Sequence record: MK327940.1
Source of the DNA: Escherichia phage vB_EcoM_G29
Reading direction: 5' to 3' (one strand)
DNA length: 64,000 nt
Part shown: positions 53,374-63,617 of the stretch, in pieces
Position numbering within the stretch: the stretch's first letter is position 1
How the letters are laid out: each line of letters begins with the position of its first letter
Program-made: the position numbers and the translations under genes
Notes under the pieces: model-generated
What the model saw: only the letters and a program-made list of their open reading frames with translations
What the model was told of the DNA's origin: nothing
Databases searched by the model: none

Positions 53374-53381
53374 TATAAATA
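53374..53381 (+). promoter_or_regulatory. late promoter TATAAATA for gene 34
   Basis: Exact TATAAATA 35 nt upstream of gene 34 ATG. Confidence 0.65.
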
Positions 53382-53415: not shown

Positions 53416-56400
53416 ATGGCCGAGATTAAAAGAAAGTTCAGAGCAGAAGATGGTCTGGACGCAGGTGGCGATAAAATAATCAACGTAGCTTTAGCTGACC
53501 GTACCGTAGGAACTGACGGTGTTAACGTTGATTACTTAATTCAAGAAAACACAGTTCAGCAATATGATCCAACTCGTGGATATTTAAAAGATTTTGTAAT
53601 CATTTATAATAATCGTTTTTGGGCAGCAACGGATAATATTCCAAAACCTGCTGGAAATTTTAATAGAATTCGTTGGAAAGCATTACGTACTGATGCCGTA
53701 TATACAACCGTATCATCTGGACCATATCAATTAAAATCCGGAGAAGCAATTTCAGTAGATACATCAGTTGGCAATGACATTGAGTTTACTTTACCACCTT
53801 CTCCGCTTGATGGAGAAACCGTAATAATTCAAGATATCGGTGGAAAACCTGGCATAAATCAGGTTAAAATAAATTCTTCAAATCAGAGTATTGTCAATTT
53901 TAGAGGTGAACAGGTACGTTCAGTTTTAATGACTCATCCAAAGTCACAGATGATATTCATTTTTAATAATCGTTTGTGGCAAATGTATGTTGCTGATTAT
54001 AGCAGAGAAGCTGCGATTGTTACTCCATCGACTGCGTATCAAGCACAATCTAATGATTTTATCGTACGTAGATTTACTTCTGCTGCACCAATTAATGTTA
54101 AACTTCCGAGATTTGCTAATCATGGCGATATTATTAATTTCGTTGATTTAGATAAACTGAATCCACTTTATCATACAATTGTTACTACATACGATGAAAC
54201 GACTTCAGTACAAGAAGTTGGAACTCATTCCATTGAAGGCCGTACATCGATTGACGGTTTCTTGATGTTTGACGATAATGAGAAATTGTGGAGATTGTTT
54301 GACGGGGATAGTAAAGCACGTTTACGCATTATAACAACTAATTCAAATATTCGTCCAAATGAAGAAGTCATGGTATTTGGCGCGAATAATGGAACAACCC
54401 AAACAATTGAACTTCAGCTTCCGACTGATATTTCTGTTGGTGATACTGTTAAAATTTCCATGAATTACATGAGAAAAGGACAAACAGTTAAAATCAAAGC
54501 TGCTGGTGAAGATAAAATTGCTTCTTCAGTTCAATTGCTGCAATTCCCAAAACGTTCAGAATATCCGCCTGAAGCTGAATGGGTAACAGTTCAAGAATTA
54601 GTTTTTAATGGTGAAACTAATTATGTACCAGTTTTGCAACTTGCTTATATAGAAGATTCTGATGGAAAATACTGGGTTGTACAGCAAAACGTTCCAACAG
54701 TTGAAAGAGTCGATTCTTTAAATAATTCTACTAGAGCAAGATTAGGCGTAATTGCTTTAGCTACACAAGCTCAAGCAAATGCTGATTTAGAAAATTCTCC
54801 ACAAAAAGAATTAGCAATTACTCCAGAAACGTTAGCTAATCGTACTGCTACTGAAACTCGCAGAGGTATTGCAAGAATAGCAACTACTGCTCAAGTAAAT
54901 CAGAACACCACATTCTCTTTTGCAGATGACCTTATCATCACTCCTAAAAAGCTGAATGAAAGAACTGCTACAGAAACTCGTAGAGGTGTTGCTGAAATTG
55001 CTACGCAGCAAGAAACTAATACAGGTACTGATGATACTACAATCATCACTCCTAAAAAGCTTCAAGCTCGTCAAGGTTCTGAATCATTATCTGGTATTGT
55101 AACTTTTGTATCTACCGCAGGAGCTACTCCAGCTTCTAGTCGTGAATTAAATGGTACGAATGTTTATAATAAAAACACTAATAATTTAGTTGTTTCACCT
55201 AAAGCTTTGGATCAGTATAAAGCTACTCCAACGCAACAAGGCGCAGTAATTTTAGCAGTTGAAAGTGAAGTAATTGCTGGACAAAGCCAAGAAGGATGGG
55301 CAAATGCGGTTGTAACGCCAGAAACGTTACATAAAAAGACATCAACTGATGGAAGAATTGGTTTAATTGAAATTGCTACGCAAAGTGAAGTTAATACAGG
55401 AACTGACTATACTCGTGCAGTCACTCCTAAAACTTTAAATGACCGTAGAGCAACTGAAAGTTTAAGTGGTATAGCTGAAATTGCTACGCAAGTTGAATTC
55501 GACGCAGGCGTCGACGATACTCGTATCTCTACACCATTAAAAATTAAAACCAGATTTAATAGTACTGATCGTACTTCTGTTGTTGCTCTATCTGGATTAG
55601 TTGAATCAGGAACTCTCTGGGACCATTATACCCTTAATATTCTTGAAGCAAATGAGACACAGCGTGGTACACTTCGTGTAGCTACACAAGTTGAAGCTGC
55701 TGCAGGAACATTAGATAATGTTTTAATAACTCCTAAAAAGCTTTTAGGTACTAAATCTACCGAATCGCAAGAAGGTGTTATTAAAGTTGCAACTCAGTCT
55801 GAAACTGTGACTGGAACGTCAGCAAATACTGCTGTATCTCCAAAAAATTTAAAATGGATTGTGCAGAGTGAACCAACTTGGGCAGCAACTACTCTGATAA
55901 GAGGGTTTGTTAAAACTTCTTCTGGTTCATTAACGTTTGTTGGTAATGATACGGTAGGTTCAACACAGCCATTAGAATCATATGAGAAAAATGGTTATGC
56001 AGTATCACCATATGAATTAAATCGCGTATTAGCAAATTATTTGCCGTTAAAAGCAAAAGCTGCTGACGCAAATTTATTAGATGGTCTAGATTCATCTCAG
56101 TTCATTCGTAGGGATATTGCCCAGACAGTTAATGGTTCACTAACCTTAACCAAACAAACGAACCTGAGTGCCCCTCTTGTATCATCTAGTACTGCTACGT
56201 TTGGTGGATCAGTTTCAGCAAATAGTACACTAACTATTTCTAATACTGGAACGGCAACTCAATTAATTTTTGAGAAAGGACCTCAAACTGGAACAAACCC
56301 GACTCAAACAATGACTGTAAAAGTGTGGGGAAATCAATTTAGTGGGGAGTCAGACACAACACGTTCTACTGTATTTGAAGTTAGTGATGAAACTTCTAGT

Positions 56401-57285
56401 CATTTTTATTCTCAGCGTAATAAAGCTGGTAATATAACATTTAATATCAACGGTACAGTAACACCGATAAATGTGAATGCTTCAGGAACATTGAATGCGA
56501 ATGGCGTTGCTACATTTGGTAATTCAGTCACTGCAACTGGTGAAATTATTTCTCGAAGCGCAAATGCTTTCCGTGCTATTAATGGAAATTATGGTTTCAT
56601 TATTCGTAATGACGGGTCAGTAACGAATTTTATGCTTACTGCATCAGGCAATCAAACTGGTGGATTTAATGGATTACGTCCATTGTCCATTAATAATCAA
56701 TCTGGGCAGGTCACAATTGGTGAAAGCTTGATCATTGCTAAAGGTGCTACTATAAATTCAGGTGGTTTAACTGTTAACTCGAGAATTCGTTCTCAAGGTG
56801 TTAAAACATCTGATTTATATACCCGTGCGCCGACATCTGATACTGTAGGATTCTGGTCAATCGATATTAATGATTCAGCCACTTATAACCAGTTCCCGGG
56901 TTATTTTAAAATGGTTGAAAAAACTAATGAAGTTACTGGACTTCCATACTTAGAACGTGGCGAAGAAGTTAAATCTCCTGGTACATTGACTCAGTTTGGT
57001 AACACACTTGATTCACTTTACCAAGATTGGATTACTTATCCAACGACTCCAGAAGCACGTACCACTCGCTGGACACGTACATGGCAAAAAACTAAAAACT
57101 CTTGGTCAAGTTTTGTTCAGGTATTTGATGGAGGTAACCCTCCTCAACCTTCGGATATAGGAGCAATTCCATCTGATAATGGAATAATAGGTAATCTTAC
57201 TATTCGTGATTTCTTACGAATTGGTAATGTTCGCATTATTCCTGACCCAGTGAATAAAACTGTTAAATTTGAATGGGTTGAATAA
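53416..57285 (+). CDS. 34: long tail fibre proximal subunit gp34 (1289 aa)
   Basis: 1289-aa ORF equal to T4 gp34; internal repeated TPKKL...ATQ modules; late promoter upstream. Confidence 0.95.
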   Translation: MAEIKRKFRAEDGLDAGGDKIINVALADRTVGTDGVNVDYLIQENTVQQYDPTRGYLKDFVIIYNNRFWAATDNIPKPAGNFNRIRWKALRTDAVYTTVSSGPYQLKSGEAISVDTSVGNDIEFTLPPSPLDGETVIIQDIGGKPGINQVKINSSNQSIVNFRGEQVRSVLMTHPKSQMIFIFNNRLWQMYVADYSREAAIVTPSTAYQAQSNDFIVRRFTSAAPINVKLPRFANHGDIINFVDLDKLNPLYHTIVTTYDETTSVQEVGTHSIEGRTSIDGFLMFDDNEKLWRLFDGDSKARLRIITTNSNIRPNEEVMVFGANNGTTQTIELQLPTDISVGDTVKISMNYMRKGQTVKIKAAGEDKIASSVQLLQFPKRSEYPPEAEWVTVQELVFNGETNYVPVLQLAYIEDSDGKYWVVQQNVPTVERVDSLNNSTRARLGVIALATQAQANADLENSPQKELAITPETLANRTATETRRGIARIATTAQVNQNTTFSFADDLIITPKKLNERTATETRRGVAEIATQQETNTGTDDTTIITPKKLQARQGSESLSGIVTFVSTAGATPASSRELNGTNVYNKNTNNLVVSPKALDQYKATPTQQGAVILAVESEVIAGQSQEGWANAVVTPETLHKKTSTDGRIGLIEIATQSEVNTGTDYTRAVTPKTLNDRRATESLSGIAEIATQVEFDAGVDDTRISTPLKIKTRFNSTDRTSVVALSGLVESGTLWDHYTLNILEANETQRGTLRVATQVEAAAGTLDNVLITPKKLLGTKSTESQEGVIKVATQSETVTGTSANTAVSPKNLKWIVQSEPTWAATTLIRGFVKTSSGSLTFVGNDTVGSTQPLESYEKNGYAVSPYELNRVLANYLPLKAKAADANLLDGLDSSQFIRRDIAQTVNGSLTLTKQTNLSAPLVSSSTATFGGSVSANSTLTISNTGTATQLIFEKGPQTGTNPTQTMTVKVWGNQFSGESDTTRSTVFEVSDETSSHFYSQRNKAGNITFNINGTVTPINVNASGTLNANGVATFGNSVTATGEIISRSANAFRAINGNYGFIIRNDGSVTNFMLTASGNQTGGFNGLRPLSINNQSGQVTIGESLIIAKGATINSGGLTVNSRIRSQGVKTSDLYTRAPTSDTVGFWSIDINDSATYNQFPGYFKMVEKTNEVTGLPYLERGEEVKSPGTLTQFGNTLDSLYQDWITYPTTPEARTTRWTRTWQKTKNSWSSFVQVFDGGNPPQPSDIGAIPSDNGIIGNLTIRDFLRIGNVRIIPDPVNKTVKFEWVE

Positions 57286-57293
57286 GAGGTATT

Positions 57294-58409
57294 ATGGAAA
57301 AATTTATGGCAGAGTTTGGACAAGGATATGTCCAAACGCCATTTTTATCGGAAAGCAATTCAGTAAGATATAAAATAAGCATAGCGGGCTCTTGCCCGCT
57401 TTCTACTGCAGGGCCATATGTTAAATTTCAGGATAATCCCGTTGGAAATCAAACATTTAGTGCAGGTCTTCATTTAAGAGTTTTTGACCCTTCTACGGGA
57501 GCATTAGTTGATAGTAAGTCATATGCTTTTTCTGCTTCAAACAATACAACATCTGCCGCTTTTGTCAGTTTCATGAATTCTTTGTCAAACAATAGACTTG
57601 TTGCTATATTAACTAGCGGAAAGGTTAATTTTCCTCCTGAAGTGGTATCTTGGTTAAGGGGAGCAGGAACTTCAGTTTTTCCATCAGATTCAGTATTGTC
57701 AAGATTTGACGTATCATATGCTGCTTTTTATACTTCTTCTAAAAGAGCTATTGCATTAGAGCATGTTAAACTAAGTAATAGAAAAAGCACAGATGATTAT
57801 CAAACTATTTTAGATGTTGTATTTGATAGTTTAGAAGACGTCGGAGCGACAGGATTTCCAAAAAGAACTTATGAAAGTGTCGAGCAATTCATGTCAGCAG
57901 TTGGTGGAACTAATAACGAAATTGCGCGATTGCCAACTTCAGCTGCTATAAGTAAACTTTCTGACTATAATTTAATTCCTGGTGATGTTCTTTATCTTAA
58001 AGCACAGTTATATGCTGATGCTGATTTACTTGATCTTGGAACTACAAACATATCCATTCGTTTTTATGATGCATCAAATGGATATATTTCCTCTACCCAA
58101 GCTGAGTTTACTGGGCAAGCTGGGTCATGGGAATTAAAGGAAGATTATGTAGTTGTTCCTGAAAATGCAGTCGGATTTACTATATATGCGCAGAGAACTG
58201 CTCAAGCTGGTCAAGGCGGAATGAGGAATTTAAGCTTTTCTGAAGTATCAAGAAATGGCGGCATTTCAAAACCTGCCGAATTTGGCGTCAACGGTATTCG
58301 CGTTAATTATGTCTGTGAATCGGCTTCACCTCCAGATATAATGGTACTTCCTACACAAGCCTCTTCTAAAACTGGCAAAGTGTTTGGACAGGAATTTAGA
58401 GAAGTTTAA
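57294..58409 (+). CDS. 35: long tail fibre hinge protein gp35 (371 aa)
   Basis: 371-aa ORF, T4 gp35 position and near-identical length. Confidence 0.9.
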   Translation: MEKFMAEFGQGYVQTPFLSESNSVRYKISIAGSCPLSTAGPYVKFQDNPVGNQTFSAGLHLRVFDPSTGALVDSKSYAFSASNNTTSAAFVSFMNSLSNNRLVAILTSGKVNFPPEVVSWLRGAGTSVFPSDSVLSRFDVSYAAFYTSSKRAIALEHVKLSNRKSTDDYQTILDVVFDSLEDVGATGFPKRTYESVEQFMSAVGGTNNEIARLPTSAAISKLSDYNLIPGDVLYLKAQLYADADLLDLGTTNISIRFYDASNGYISSTQAEFTGQAGSWELKEDYVVVPENAVGFTIYAQRTAQAGQGGMRNLSFSEVSRNGGISKPAEFGVNGIRVNYVCESASPPDIMVLPTQASSKTGKVFGQEFREV

Positions 58410-58414
58410 ACTGA

Positions 58415-58438
58415 GGGAGCCTTCGGGTTCCCTTTTTC
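58415..58438 (+). terminator. intrinsic terminator after gene 35
   Basis: gggagcc-ttcg-ggttccc followed by tttttc. Confidence 0.7.
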
Positions 58439-58440
58439 TT

Positions 58441-58448
58441 TATAAATA
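58441..58448 (+). promoter_or_regulatory. late promoter TATAAATA for genes 36-37
   Basis: Exact TATAAATA 24 nt upstream of gene 36 ATG, after terminator hairpin. Confidence 0.65.
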
Positions 58449-58471: not shown

Positions 58472-59122
58472 ATGGCTGATTTAAAAGTAGGTTCAACTGT
58501 AGGTGGATCTGTCATTTGGCATCAAGGAAATTTTCCATTGAATTCAGCCGGTGACGATGTACTCTACAAATCATTTAAAATATATTCAGAATATAATAAA
58601 CCACAGGCAGCTGATAACGATTTCGTTTCTAAAGCTAATGGTGGTACTTACACCGGTCCAATTACTATTAATTACGGGGTAAATAGTTATCTTCAATTAA
58701 GTAATAATGAAACCCCCATTCGAATTCGTTCTGGTGGCGGTACCGGTAATACTCTTGTAGTTGGCGGCTCTTCCGGCGGTATTAGTTTTAGACCTGCAGG
58801 TAGTGAAATCACTACTGGACAAATTACTATTACACCAGAAGGTTTGACAACATTTACCAGGGCTGTAACGGCTCCATCGGTAACTGTTACATCTACTCCT
58901 TCCGCAGCATCTGATGTTACTCGCAAAGATTATGTTGATGGAGCAATAAATACTGTTACAGCAAATGCAAACTCTAGGGTATTACGCTCTGGAGACACTA
59001 TGACAGGAAATTTAACTGCGCCAAACCTTTTTTCACAGAATCCTGCATCTCAACCTTCACACGTTCCACGATTTGACCAAATCGTAATTAAGGATTCTGT
59101 TCAAGATTTCGGCTATTATTAA
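58472..59122 (+). CDS. 36: long tail fibre distal connector gp36 (216 aa)
   Basis: 216-aa ORF following a terminator and late promoter; T4 order 34-35-36-37. Confidence 0.9.
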
Positions 59123-59130
59123 GAGGACTT

Positions 59131-62097
59131 ATGGCTACTTTAAAACAAATACAATTTAAAAGAAGCAAAACTGCAGGTCAACGTCCTGCAGCTTCAGTAT
59201 TAGCCGAAGGTGAATTGGCTATAAACTTAAAAGATAAAACAATTTTCACAAAAGATGACTCAGGTAGTGTTATAGAATTAGGTTTAAAATATGGAGGAAC
59301 TATAAATGGATCTTTAGAGGTTACAGAAAATATAACTGGAACTTTAATTGGAAATTCTAGTACAGCTACTAAATTGCAAACACCTAGGAAAATTAATGGT
59401 ATATCTTTTGATGGATCAAAGGACATTACACTAACTCCATCTGATATAAATGTAAATAGTACAACGTTTATAAAAAATAACGGCGAATTACCTGTTGATG
59501 CTAATTTAGATGAGTATGGGCCTGTTGAAGAATATCTTGGAGTTTGGTCGAAAGCAACTTCAACCAACGCTCAACCAGCAAATAAATTTCCAGAAGAAAA
59601 TGCTGTAGGTGTTCTAGAAGTATTTGTGGCCGGTCAATTTGCTGGTACTCAGAGATATACAACTAGATACGGAAATGTTTATATTCGTTCCTTGACTGCT
59701 ACATGGAACGGAGTAAACGGTCCGTGGAGTGCGTGGCGAAATATTCAATCTGGTACTCGTCCACTGTCAACAACGATTGATCTTAATGATCTAGGAGGCG
59801 CTGAACACCTTGGTTTGTGGCGAAATAGTTCAAATTCCATTGCTACCTTTGACAGAAATTTCCCAGAAGAAGGATCGTCCGCTCAAGGACTTTTAGAAGT
59901 ATATGAAGGTGGAAACTATTCTCGCACACAGAGATATACGACCAGATTTGGTGTTGTTTATACTCGTTGTCTTGCTGCTGCGTGGGATGCTTCTGCGCCT
60001 AAATGGGGACCTTGGCAACAAGTCGGTAATGTCACACCGGCGACTTTCTATGACGGAGATCTGAATGATTTTAAAACTCCTGGGTTATATAATATTTTAG
60101 GCACTGATGCCGTTATTAACTGTCCTACCGGTGAAGGTTTGCCGACTGTTATTGTTGGTTTGCTGGAAGTTAAACAGCGTGCTTCTGGCGGTGCTATTTT
60201 CCAAAAATTTACTACTGCCGGAACGGGTGCAACTACTCGCGATCGTATTTTTGAGCGTGCATATACTGGTGGTGTGTGGGGTGCATGGAACGAAGTATAT
60301 ACATCTTATTCTCTGCCAATTACTTTGGGTATGGGTGGTATTAAAACTCAATTAGCGGAGCTAGACTGGCAAACCTTTGATTTTGTTCCTGGTAGTATGT
60401 TTAGTGTTCCTTTGAACAAAATAAAGAACATGCCAGCAAATATGGATTGGGGTGCGATTGACGGAAACTTGGTTATGTTTTCTGTCGGTCCTAGCGAACA
60501 CACTAGCACAGGGCGTACTGTTCAGGTTTGGCGTGGTACTGTATCCCAGACAAACTACCGTTATTTTGTCGTTCGTGTGTTCGGTAATTCTGGAAATAGA
60601 ACTTGCACAGTTCGCCGTGTTGTTCTTGAAGACGGATCACATACTTGGACTGCTAAACAAGATTTTAATGGCGCAGTTAATTTTAACTCTACTGTTAACC
60701 TTAATAACACTACCACATTTAAAACAGAAGTTAAATTTCGCGCATTGAATGCGTTCCGCCTGTATGGCGGAAAATTTGGTACATTTTTCCGTAATGATGG
60801 AGAGAGTCTTTATATTCTTTCCACCGACGAAGATGATCAAGATGGAAACTTTAACACAAATAGACCTTTCCGTTATGAATTAAGAACTGGTGATGTTACT
60901 TTGGGTGGTATTAGTGGTGCTAACGTTTTAAAATTAAAACGTGATTCTCTCACCGCATTTTTTGGTGGTGATATTAACATGAAAGGCTTGATGACTTTTG
61001 ACGCCGGACGTTTAGGATCACGAGATTATTTTAAATTTAACCATTGGGGTGATAGCAATAACGCTCGTGATAACATTATTCAGTTAGAAGATAGCAAAGG
61101 CGTTCATTTTTCCACTGAACGTACTTTAGCGACTGGTGCAATTAAGACTAAATTTTTTGGTGAAGTTGAATCCGAAGGTAGATTGATTATTAAACGTCCG
61201 GGTGATTCTATTGTATTATCAACAACTGCTAGTAATTCTTTGCATATTCGCGGTGATATAGACGGGACTGGTAACTGGTATATTGGTAAAGGTGGTGCTG
61301 ATAATGGATTAGCGTTCTATAGTTATGCTACTAATGCTGGTGTATACATTACAAACGCAGGAGATATCTCGCTAAGTCCAAAGGGTGCCGAAATGGCTCA
61401 GGTCAATAACGTTCGATTATATGTTCATGGTGAACGTTGGACTGCTAGTCAACCAGGTGATTGGGGTAGTCAGTGGCAAGTGGAAGCGCCAATATTCGTC
61501 GATCATGGTTATGTTGGACCAGATAGCTATTATCCAATTATTAAAGGAAGAAGTGTAATCACCAATCAAGGGTTTGTAACTGCCGTCGATCTTGGTATTC
61601 GTCGTGTCAATAACAATTGGGGACAAGCAATTATTCGTGTTGGATCTGCGGAGGCATCGCCAGCGGCTGGACACCCTAACGCGATATTTGAATTTCATTA
61701 CGACGGTACTTTCTATTCTCCTGGTAATGGTAACTTTAACGATGTGTATATTCGTTCCGATGGTCGACTTAAGATCAATAAAGAAGAGTTAGAAAACGGA
61801 GCACTTGAAAAAGTATGCCGACTGAAAGTTTATACATACGATAAGGTTAAGTCTATTAAAGATCGTAGTGTTATTAAACGTGAAGTTGGTATTATTGCTC
61901 AGGATCTTGAAAAAGAATTATCAGAAGCTGTATCTAAAGTTGAAGTTGATGGATCTGATGTTCTGACAATTTCTAACTCCGCTGTAAATGCTCTTTTAAT
62001 TAAGGCTATCCAAGAAATGAGCGAAGAAATTAAAGAATTAAAAACGCCTTTCTTCACTAAAATTGCTCGCAAAATTAGTAATTATTTTAAATTCTAA
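59131..62097 (+). CDS. 37: long tail fibre distal subunit gp37 (988 aa) with C-terminal intramolecular chaperone-like domain
   Basis: N-terminus shared with gp34/gp36 fibre motifs; C-terminal 112 aa after IRS|DGRLK has the hallmark of auto-cleaving chaperone domains. Confidence 0.9.
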
Positions 62098-62102
62098 CAA
62101 CA

Positions 62103-62120
62103 AGGGGCTTTGCCCCTTTG
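62103..62120 (+). other. hairpin between genes 37 and 38
   Basis: aggggc-tttg-cccctt directly before the gene 38 RBS. Confidence 0.45.
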
Positions 62121-62129
62121 GAGAAAATT

Positions 62130-62930
62130 ATGGCAGTAGTTGGTGTTCCCGGTTGGATTGGAAGTTCATCCGTAAATGAAACAGGACAACGATGGATGAG
62201 TCAAGCAGCTGGTCAATTAAGATTGGGTGTTCCTTGCTGGATGAGCCAATTCGCCGGACGCTCAAGAGAGATTATTCATACTGTAAGTGCTAATCATAAT
62301 TTTAATGGTCAGTGGTTCCGTGATAGATGCTTTGAAGCTGGCGGTGCACCCATTGTATTCAATATTGTTGGTGATATCGTTTCTTATTCTAAAGATGTGC
62401 CACTTTTCTTTATGTATGGGGATACGCCTAATGAATATGTTGTTCTTAATATTCATGGTGGTGTTCATATGTGGGGTCGTGGTGGTAATGGTGGATACAC
62501 TCACTCAGGAGGCGACGGTAACGGTACACAAGGCGGTCATGTTATTCAAAATGATATCGGTGGACGGCTTCGTATTTGGAACTACGGTGTTATAGCTGCT
62601 GGTGGTGGCGGTGGTGGTGGTATTGCATATCGTCCACACTCAGGGGCAAACTGGCAAGATATCGGTGGCGGTGGTGGTCGACCTTTCGGTGGCGCTGGCG
62701 GCGGCGGTTATTCCGGTGGTGCTGCTTCGTATGAAGGTCCGGGTGGTGGTTATGACTATGGTAACGCACACTCCGGCGCTGGTGGTAATGCTGGTGCTTC
62801 TGGTCAGAATGCATGGTCTGACGGCGGTAAAGTTCTTAAAGTTGGTGTTGGTGGTGCGTCTGGTCATGCAGTGTTTGGATCTTCTCCAACTTGGGGTGCT
62901 GTTGGAACAATTTACGGACCAAGAGTATAA
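62130..62930 (+). CDS. 38: T2-type receptor-recognising adhesin gp38 (266 aa)
   Basis: Track start TTG 62118; ATG at 62130 with GGAG upstream; glycine-rich motifs (GGGGGGG, GGGGG, GGAGGGG) separated by variable segments. Confidence 0.85.
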
Positions 62931-62960
62931 TTTGAATAAATATCCTTAAAAGGAGGGTCT

Positions 62961-63617
62961 ATGGCAGCACCTAGAATATCATTTTCGCCCTCTGATATTC
63001 TGTTGGGTGTTCTAGATCGCTTGTTCAAAGATAATGCTACCGGGAAAGTTCTTGCTTCCCGGGTAGCTGTCGTAATTCTTTTGTTTATAATGGCGATTGT
63101 TTGGTATAGGGGAGATAGTTTCTTTGAGTACTATAAGCAATCAAAGTATGAAACATATAGTGAAATTATTGAAAAGGAAAGAAATGCACGCTTTGAATCT
63201 GTCGCCCTGGAACAACTCCAGATAGTTCACATATCATCTGAGGCAGACTTTAGTGCGGTGTATTCTTTCCGCCCTAAAAACTTAAACTATTTTGTTGATA
63301 TTATAGCATATGAAGGAAAATTACCTTCAACAATAAGTGAAAAATCACTTGGAGGATATCCTGTTGATAAAACTATGGATGAATATACAGTTCATTTAAA
63401 TGGACGTCATTATTATTCCAACTCAAAATTTGCTTTTTTACCAACTAAAAAGCCTACTCCCGAAATAAACTACATGTACAGTTGTCCATATTTTAATTTG
63501 GATAATATCTATGCTGGAACAATAACTATGTACTGGTATAGAAATGATCATATAAGTAATGACCGCCTTGAATCAATATGTGCTCAGGCGGCCAGAATAT
63601 TAGGAAGGGCTAAATAA
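62961..63617 (+). CDS. t: holin T (218 aa)
   Basis: 218-aa ORF with single N-terminal TM segment and large periplasmic domain; T4 t length and position. Confidence 0.95.
   Translation: MAAPRISFSPSDILLGVLDRLFKDNATGKVLASRVAVVILLFIMAIVWYRGDSFFEYYKQSKYETYSEIIEKERNARFESVALEQLQIVHISSEADFSAVYSFRPKNLNYFVDIIAYEGKLPSTISEKSLGGYPVDKTMDEYTVHLNGRHYYSNSKFAFLPTKKPTPEINYMYSCPYFNLDNIYAGTITMYWYRNDHISNDRLESICAQAARILGRAK

Follow-up and report, generated by a model that had tools for sequence, protein, structure and literature searches.

The long tail fibres of T2 and T6 end in an adhesin that is encoded separately from the fibre shaft: gp37 undergoes C-terminal cleavage and carries gp38 as its cap (PMC3157838), and the processing is documented, according to the account in PMC3157838, in the work of Drexler et al. 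(1986). The glycine-rich and hypervariable layout of gp38 was described by Trojet et al. (PMC3157838). T6-like adhesins recognise Tsx (PMC3157838), Ox2 binds the loops of OmpA, and the phylogeny of Gp38 has been reported to predict the receptor (PMC12032242). In the S16 structure, gp38 forms a polyglycine-II (PGII) sandwich, and three conserved Trp prongs enter pockets on the base of gp37 (PMC6851490). The S16 gp37 chaperone autocleaves at DLNVS^SDRRIKK and thereby exposes the docking surface, and a motif identical to that of the phage described here, DVYIR^SDGRLKI, has been discussed for the fPS phages (PMC7917993). T5 pb1, which is cut between Thr1263 and Ser1264 and has Lys1269 at +5, provides the Ser/Lys mechanism; its serine departs with the chaperone, as it likewise does in the K1F endosialidase (PMC4690869). 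Relatives have been known since 1986-87 to have this type of adhesin and to process gp37 at the C-terminus, the S16 gp37-gp38 structure dates from 2018, and modular shuffling of gp38 has already been described. The tail-fibre tip considered here is itself already known, its sequence being in GenBank and its biology published.

The window analysed is a stretch of 64,000 nucleotides from Escherichia phage vB_EcoM_G29 (MK327940.1), in which g37 (59131-62097), g38 (62130-62930) and t (62961-63617) follow one another, the product of t being a holin (Pfam Phage_holin_T, E=8.9e-118). Positions 61400-63000 share 100% nucleotide identity with the Tequatrovirus Escherichia phages vB_EcoM_G4500 (MK327945) and vB_EcoM_G9062 (MK373779 / NC_054920), both from the collection of Korf et al. 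2019 (PMC6563267). The gp38 of these two phages is also 100% identical to that of the window, and no difference from either was detected in the region examined. A further close relative is Ox2, whose gene 37/38 record (X05675) shows 95.3% nucleotide identity.

On the plus strand, g38 reads from an ATG at 62130 to 62930 and encodes 266 amino acids; the earlier note had described a protein of this length with glycine-rich motifs, and all of these motifs are present. The automatic open reading frame call extends the gene to a TTG at 62118 (270 aa), and the public annotation and Ox2 gp38 use the ATG. The N-terminal attachment domain (aa 1-42, 62130..62255) matches Gp38_N (PF21721) with 69 bits and E=3.2e-19, above the curated cut-off, and contains Trp9, Trp22 and Trp37, all three invariant in six gp38 sequences (the window, Ox2, M1, T6, T2 and S16). 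A linker and the first part of the central beta-helix follow (aa 43-109, 62256..62456) and are identical to T6 gp38. The C-terminal specificity domain, which runs to the stop codon (aa 110-266, 62457..62930), is built of glycine-rich motifs that alternate with hypervariable segments, and it closes with the conserved IYGPRV. The GP38 family (PF05268) matches aa 47-266 over its entire profile (positions 1-218 of 218; 223 bits, E=5.2e-66, above the curated cut-off). Glycine accounts for 36% of residues 110-266, and the motifs comprise GGGGGGG at 158-164, GGGGG at 179-183, an 11-residue motif at 187-197 and GPGGGYDYG at 203-211. When gp38 was aligned with that of T2, T6, Ox2, M1 and S16, glycine clusters at 116-121, 132-136, 158-163, 179-190, 205-207, 216-225 and 241-245 proved invariant; the stretches separating them vary, and the end is conserved as ...W..VG.I.G... 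Among solved structures, the matches by sequence are to 9V85_A (1.1e-61) and S16 gp38 (6F45_D, 1.9e-43), and the public annotation reads 'tail fiber protein; host specificity / putative tail fibre adhesin Gp38'. Together, the two Pfam families, the 9V85 and 6F45 matches and the conserved Trp residues support the assignment of gp38 as a predicted glycine-rich adhesin of the T2/T6/Ox2 type and not a T4-type chaperone, in agreement with the initial proposal of a T2/K3/Ox2-type protein unlike T4 gp38.

Ox2 gp38 is identical to that of the window at 256 of 266 positions (96%), and the ten substitutions fall into two groups. Six of them (L52V, G53S, D55N, S72G, T80V and L83I) render the N-terminal part identical to T6, with which gp38 aa 1-116 are shared without change and to which nucleotides 62042-62435 are 100% identical (AP018814). 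The other four (K174N, R193G, A224S and V257A) lie in the specificity domain, which is 97.5% identical to Ox2 and, unlike the upstream part, only 42-70% identical to T6 at the nucleotide level. Judged from these comparisons, the locus is a mosaic in which the end of g37 and g38 codons 1-~102 are 100% T6-like and the specificity domain is 96-99% Ox2-like.

With a specificity domain 97.5% identical to the one in Ox2, a classic OmpA-dependent phage, the phage most likely uses OmpA as its receptor. The assignment is probable and not certain, since the domain carries the four substitutions relative to Ox2, and in this family receptor use may shift or widen with only a few changes (PMC3157838). The adhesin architecture could be as described and the receptor nevertheless not be OmpA, or not OmpA alone, with OmpC, OmpF, Tsx or LPS taking its place or sharing it. 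Consistent with this, the four substitutions lie in or adjoin variable segments. The specificity of gp38 is reported to widen with a small number of point changes in HVS2/HVS3, an example being PST, which recognises Tsx, OmpA and LPS (PMC3157838), and OmpF and LPS serve as receptors for the fPS phages, whose gp37 end is the same (PMC7917993). We nonetheless consider this departure from OmpA unlikely, if worth keeping in view: besides the near-identity to Ox2, about 40 sequenced phages carry the specificity domain at 95% identity or more, AV119, which depends on OmpA, retains 82.7% identity there, and the reported value of Gp38 phylogeny as a receptor predictor argues in the same direction. That K174N, R193G, A224S and V257A alter the OmpA loop variants recognised, or the outer-membrane protein used, is a tentative and quite improbable suggestion; if it were true, this natural T6/Ox2 chimera would offer a ready case for mapping the receptor determinants of gp38.

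The probable OmpA-directed adhesin is encoded directly downstream of gp37, whose open reading frame (59131..62097, plus strand) specifies 988 amino acids in the open reading frame list, the length given at the outset. In NC_054920 the protein is annotated as 'long tail fiber protein distal subunit'; over its full length it is 90% identical to T6 gp37, and its last 251 residues are identical to Ox2 gp37 at 240 positions (96%). A blastp comparison of gp37 against itself gave no off-diagonal matches; a tandem repeat in gp37 was revealed by direct local alignment. The predicted mature part, the distal half-fibre subunit, spans aa 1-875 (59131..61755) and would end in ...NDVYIR875.

The remaining 113 of the 988 residues, at the extreme C-terminus of this distal long-tail-fibre subunit (aa 876-988, 61756..62097 with the stop codon), match Peptidase_S74 (PF13884) over aa 876-934 with 41.9 bits against a cut-off of 22 (E=1.2e-10). 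The alignment of this domain with its S16 counterpart extends over all 113 residues. A profile built from five gp37 C-termini retrieved S16 gp37 (6F45_A) from the PDB at 1.2e-42, a top match that is circular since S16 itself is included in the profile, together with two independent matches, to the fibre protein 8JOV (8JOV_1, 4.5e-7) and to MYRF (7DC3_A, 8.9e-7). With the single gp37 C-terminus as query, only 6F45_A (E=0.00097) and 8JOV were found, weakly, and no chain of the K1F endosialidase or of T5 pb1 came up in the PDB, even with the five-sequence profile. The above-threshold family match and the profile matches to solved members support the prediction of a Peptidase_S74-type intramolecular chaperone at the gp37 C-terminus; such a domain had been anticipated in the earlier note, as had the helical segments near the end of the protein, which lie at aa 920-930 and aa 953-970.

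The cleavage motif, 10 residues starting at aa 872, contains Ser876 (codon 61756-61758) and Lys881. All six gp37 sequences compared (the window, Ox2, M1, T6, T2 and S16) share Ser876, Asp877, Arg879 and Lys881, and Ser876 aligns with the second Ser of the S16 cleavage motif. The +5 spacing of Ser876 and Lys881 corresponds to that of T5 pb1 Ser1264 and Lys1269, a correspondence of motif spacing and not of direct alignment. These conserved residues, with the S16 alignment and the T5 spacing, point to an autoproteolytic site at Arg875/Ser876 (61753..61758, plus strand). The original suggestion had been a cut after Ser876, releasing 112 residues from position 61759, where the Asp877 codon begins; the region of the site holds, and the bond has been moved to the other side of the serine because S16 gp37, T5 pb1 and the K1F endosialidase are all cut before the conserved serine. 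Cleavage at Arg875|Ser876 with release of 113 residues is most likely, although the exact bond is not beyond doubt.

The same domain might instead be a non-cleaving remnant that is kept on the mature fibre, a reading with which the Pfam match, covering only aa 876-934 of the 113-residue domain, would agree. It is very unlikely, given that neither the Ser/Lys pair nor the adjacent Asp and Arg vary, that all 113 residues align with an S16 domain reported to autocleave (PMC7917993), that T2/T6 gp37 is on record as being processed at its C-terminus (Drexler et al. 1986, as related in PMC3157838) and that gp38 docking requires an exposed gp37 end (PMC7917993, PMC6851490). Hardly credible at all is a T4-type tip, in which gp38 would be only a folding/assembly chaperone absent from the virion and gp37 would bind the receptor: some public records label close gp38 homologues 'distal long tail fiber assembly catalyst' or 'long tail fiber assembly chaperone', names that look carried over from T4, but T4 gp38 is unrelated in sequence (PMC3157838, PMC6851490), the three docking Trp residues and the glycine-rich/hypervariable layout speak for an adhesin, and this architecture was rejected on the family matches of gp38, all of them to adhesins (PF05268 and PF21721), on its matches to the solved adhesins 9V85 and 6F45_D, on the finding of no solved T4 gp37 structure at E<=0.1 when full-length gp37 was compared with the PDB, and on the predicted removable S74 domain of gp37.

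The presumably cleavable gp37 and its adhesin are probably expressed together. A motif search located the T4-type late-promoter motif TATAAATA at 58441..58448 on the plus strand, upstream of g36, from where it probably drives a single g36-g37-g38 transcript. No further copy was found between this position and g38, so that a late promoter directly upstream of g38 was discarded as a candidate, and from 53001 onwards the only other copy is at 53374, upstream of g34. The 32-nt spacer between g37 and g38 contains a hairpin (AAGGGGC-TTT-GCCCCTT, 62102..62118, plus strand; RNA fold -11.0 kcal/mol), 3' of which lies a GGAG ribosome-binding site at 62120-62123. The hairpin was also considered as an intrinsic terminator between the two genes; the terminator scan gave no call, because the hairpin is without a T-run.

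With high probability, the region codes for the tip by which the long tail fibre of a T-even phage (Tequatrovirus) binds its receptor, a tip of the T2/T6/Ox2 type, and the following processing and docking scheme is proposed for its formation. Synthesised as a 988-residue precursor, gp37 would carry in Ser876-Phe988 a Peptidase_S74-type chaperone of 113 residues that aids the folding of three chains into the distal fibre. The chaperone would then cut itself off at Arg875|Ser876, with Lys881 activating Ser876, and its departure would bare the flat ...DVYIR end of the trimer. A single 266-residue gp38 may dock on this end through its helical N-terminal domain, by means of Trp9, Trp22 and Trp37, which would give a gp37:gp38 stoichiometry of 3:1 and incorporate gp38 into the virion. 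The gene order, the family assignments, the conserved catalytic and docking residues and the identities to known phages come from the sequence itself; cleavage and stoichiometry are extrapolated from homologues, and the presence of gp38 on the virion and its binding to an outer-membrane receptor from Ox2, T2, T6, S16 and PP01. The C-terminal glycine-rich motifs of gp38 are predicted to fold into a polyglycine-II sandwich whose variable loops would touch the outer-membrane protein, most likely OmpA. From a practical perspective, the value of these assignments lies in annotation: an Ox2-type, probably OmpA-directed gp38 on a gp37 with a predicted self-cleaving chaperone is useful information for the choice of phages for cocktails and for predicting routes of resistance, such as the loss of ompA.

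Compared with the described systems, the locus resembles that of Ox2 (X05675, Henning laboratory, 1987) in the order g37-g38-t, in a gp38 of 266 residues and in the same 10-residue gp37 cleavage motif, and it resembles T6 in a gp37 with a 113-residue chaperone domain. As in S16 (PDB 6F45, Dunne et al. 2018), gp37 ends in an S-D-x-R-[IL]-K chaperone, the S16 one being autocleaving, and gp38 combines a Trp-pronged N-terminal domain, a beta-helix and a polyglycine-II sandwich, here assigned by sequence match. S16 differs in that its gp38 shares only 48% identity and its gp37 C-terminus 26-31%, the gp37 stretch immediately preceding the last five residues is of unrelated sequence, and the host and the variable loops are not the same. 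The S74 domains of the K1F endosialidase, T5 pb1 and MYRF are likewise C-terminal, with a Ser and a Lys at +5, and are released after trimer folding; the sequence similarity to them is only distant (MYRF 8.9e-7, by profile), and, in contrast to these systems, the release proposed here would uncover a docking site for a separate adhesin and not the receptor site itself.

At the end of the window lie the long-tail-fibre genes of a T4-like phage in one block, with every listed gene from g34 to t on the plus strand: g34 (53416-57285, 1289 aa), g35 (57294-58409, 371 aa), g36 (58472-59122, 216 aa), g37 (59131-62097, 988 aa), g38 (62130-62930, 266 aa), and the holin gene t (62961-63617, 218 aa; Pfam Phage_holin_T, E=8.9e-118), followed by asiA on the opposite strand. 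RefSeq labels g37 'long tail fiber protein distal subunit' and g38 'tail fiber protein; host specificity / putative tail fibre adhesin Gp38'. Labels vary among related records: several adhesin-type gp38 genes are called 'assembly catalyst' or 'chaperone', ZCEC14 has a 'DnaB-like helicase' listed in the matching stretch where other records have holin, and the T6 record AP018814 names the gene at the asiA position 'DNA polymerase'.

T4-type late-promoter motifs (TATAAATA) occur at 53374, ahead of g34, and at 58441, ahead of g36; since a motif search found none immediately ahead of g38, this gene is probably co-transcribed with g36-g37. The 58441 motif directly follows a terminator-like hairpin (58413-58434; a putative terminator in NC_054920), and the two elements separate the g34-g35 unit from the g36-g37-g38 unit. 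Between g37 and g38, the 32-nt spacer contains a 7-bp hairpin (AAGGGGC-TTT-GCCCCTT, 62102-62118, -11 kcal/mol) just 5' of the g38 ribosome-binding site. This hairpin lacks a T-run and drew no call in the terminator scan; it could contribute to RNA stability or to translational coupling.

The 988-residue length of gp37 was confirmed, as were the two segments previously quoted from its C-terminus (residues 920-930 and 953-970) and a cleavage motif that starts at residue 872 and includes Ser876 (codon 61756-61758) and Lys881. The earlier note had proposed an intramolecular chaperone here, and Pfam places Peptidase_S74 ('Chaperone of endosialidase') on residues 876-934 (41.9 bits, cut-off 22). When gp37 is aligned with its counterparts from phages Ox2, M1, T6, T2, and S16, Ser876, Asp877, Arg879, and Lys881 are invariant, and the remaining chaperone domain is conserved up to its end. 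A profile of five gp37 C-termini matched the S16 gp37 construct 6F45_A at 1.2e-42, a circular result given that S16 is itself a profile member; matches independent of the members were obtained to a phage fibre (8JOV, 4.5e-7) and to the autoprocessing domain of MYRF, a human transcription factor (7DC3, 8.9e-7). On these sequence grounds (Pfam, invariant residues, and profile matches), membership of the gp37 C-terminus in the Peptidase_S74 family is secure. Counted from the serine, the domain spans 113 residues in the window and T6, 112 in S16, and 99 in T2. For T2, experiments demonstrated that gp37 is processed at its C-terminus (Drexler, Riede and Henning 1986), and Trojet et al. (PMC3157838) summarize this processing for T2 and T6.

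The cut had been drawn after Ser876, with 61759, the Asp877 codon, as the start coordinate, a placement for which the phi29 appendage is the sole case: there the serine is modelled as the last mature residue, in weak density (PMC4690869). Homologues point one residue earlier. S16 gp37 is cut between both serines, DLNVS^SDRRIKK (PMC7917993); in T5 pb1 the scissile bond is Thr1263-Ser1264, with Lys1269 activating Ser1264, which departs with the chaperone; the K1F endosialidase behaves likewise (PMC4690869). By analogy with S16, T5 pb1, and K1F, the best prediction is a cut at Arg875|Ser876, which would leave 875 residues in mature gp37 and release the last 113.

Other modules were observed within gp37. 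Tandem domains of ~90 aa, R1 (aa 116-205) and R2 (aa 206-298; together window 59476-60024), share the pattern ...FPEE...G.LEV...TQRYTTR.G.VY.R.L.A.W...W (local alignment score 166; shuffle mean 28; z=26); a weaker third copy at ~aa 341-389 is marginal (z~2.8), and Pfam gave no match in the repeat segment. A Gp34_trimer domain (aa 519-581, window 60685-60873, Pfam E=4.2e-11) lies mid-protein, and aa 463-602 match solved T4 gp34 fragments (4UXE, 5NXF) and Mu tail-fibre protein S (5YVQ); this fibre module is therefore common to the proximal and distal half-fibres.

For gp38, the expected 266 residues are read from the ATG at 62130, which is preceded by GGAG (62120-62123) and shared with Ox2 and RefSeq; these favour it over a 270-aa ORF from TTG 62118, a mechanical extension. 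A T4 arrangement was rejected, as gp38 has no T4-type gp38 match; a PDB search with full-length gp37 (E<=0.1) found no solved T4 gp37 structure. The proposed T2-type glycine-rich adhesin is instead supported by Gp38_N (PF21721, residues 1-42) and GP38 (PF05268, residues 47-266, entire 218-position model, E=5.2e-66), by sequence matches to a solved GFP-gp38 fusion (9V85, 1.1e-61) and S16 gp38 (6F45_D, 1.9e-43), and by W9, W22, and W37, invariant across the same six phages; in S16, three conserved tryptophans fit three equivalent pockets of the gp37 base (PMC6851490). All four quoted glycine motifs are present (158-164, 179-183, 187-197, 203-211), and invariant glycine clusters (116-121, 132-136, 158-163, 179-190, 205-207, 216-225, 241-245) alternate with stretches that vary, as had been claimed. 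Glycine makes up 36% of residues 110-266, and its codons raise local G+C to 52%, versus ~36% nearby.

Windowed nucleotide identity reveals a sharp mosaic produced by recombination. The gp37 tip and chaperone start (61542-61841) are 96-100% identical to Ox2/M1 and 71-83% to T6; the g37 end, spacer, and g38 codons 1-~102 (62042-62435) are 76-97% and 99-100% identical, respectively; the remainder of g38 (62436-62908) returns to 96-99% and 42-70%. One switch, from Ox2/M1-like to T6-like, falls inside the chaperone domain (~61850-62040); the other, between the second and third segments, lies just ahead of the first glycine-rich motif and marks the attachment/specificity module boundary. Residues 1-116 of gp38 are identical to T6, whose residue is carried at 6/6 N-terminal differences from Ox2. 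The predicted adhesin joins a T6-type N-terminal part to an Ox2-type specificity domain.

Identity to Ox2 reaches 256/266 residues in gp38, 240/251 at the end of gp37, and 97.5% in the specificity domain (gp38 aa 110-266), which is at least 95% identical in ~40 sequenced coliphages and Shigella phages. Ox2 belongs to the classic OmpA-dependent phages, and the receptor is reportedly predictable from gp38 phylogeny (PMC12032242); OmpA is therefore the likely receptor. The domain differs from Ox2 at four positions (K174N, R193G, A224S, V257A), and within this family specificity can widen through small changes (PMC3157838).

Overall, the analysis confirms the earlier observation and supports its interpretation, except that the predicted cut site moves by one residue. 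Window 61400-63000 is 100% identical to vB_EcoM_G4500 (MK327945) and vB_EcoM_G9062 (MK373779 / NC_054920), Escherichia phages of the genus Tequatrovirus from manure in Germany, and 95.3% identical to GenBank X05675 (1987), 'Bacteriophage Ox2 gene 38 for receptor-recognizing protein and flanking regions'; a 95% identical Tequatrovirus, OR584013, was deposited as 'Pseudomonas phage PsgM02F'. Sequence and family of the region are already known, as are its mechanism and the structure of relatives. Its cleavage motif is that discussed for the fPS phages in PMC7917993, its gp38 layout follows the pattern of glycine-rich motifs and hypervariable segments of Trojet et al. (PMC3157838), for which the polyglycine-II sandwich of S16 gp38 provides a structural explanation (PMC6851490), and its mosaic is consistent with the modular shuffling already described at this locus (PMC3157838), being no new type of event.
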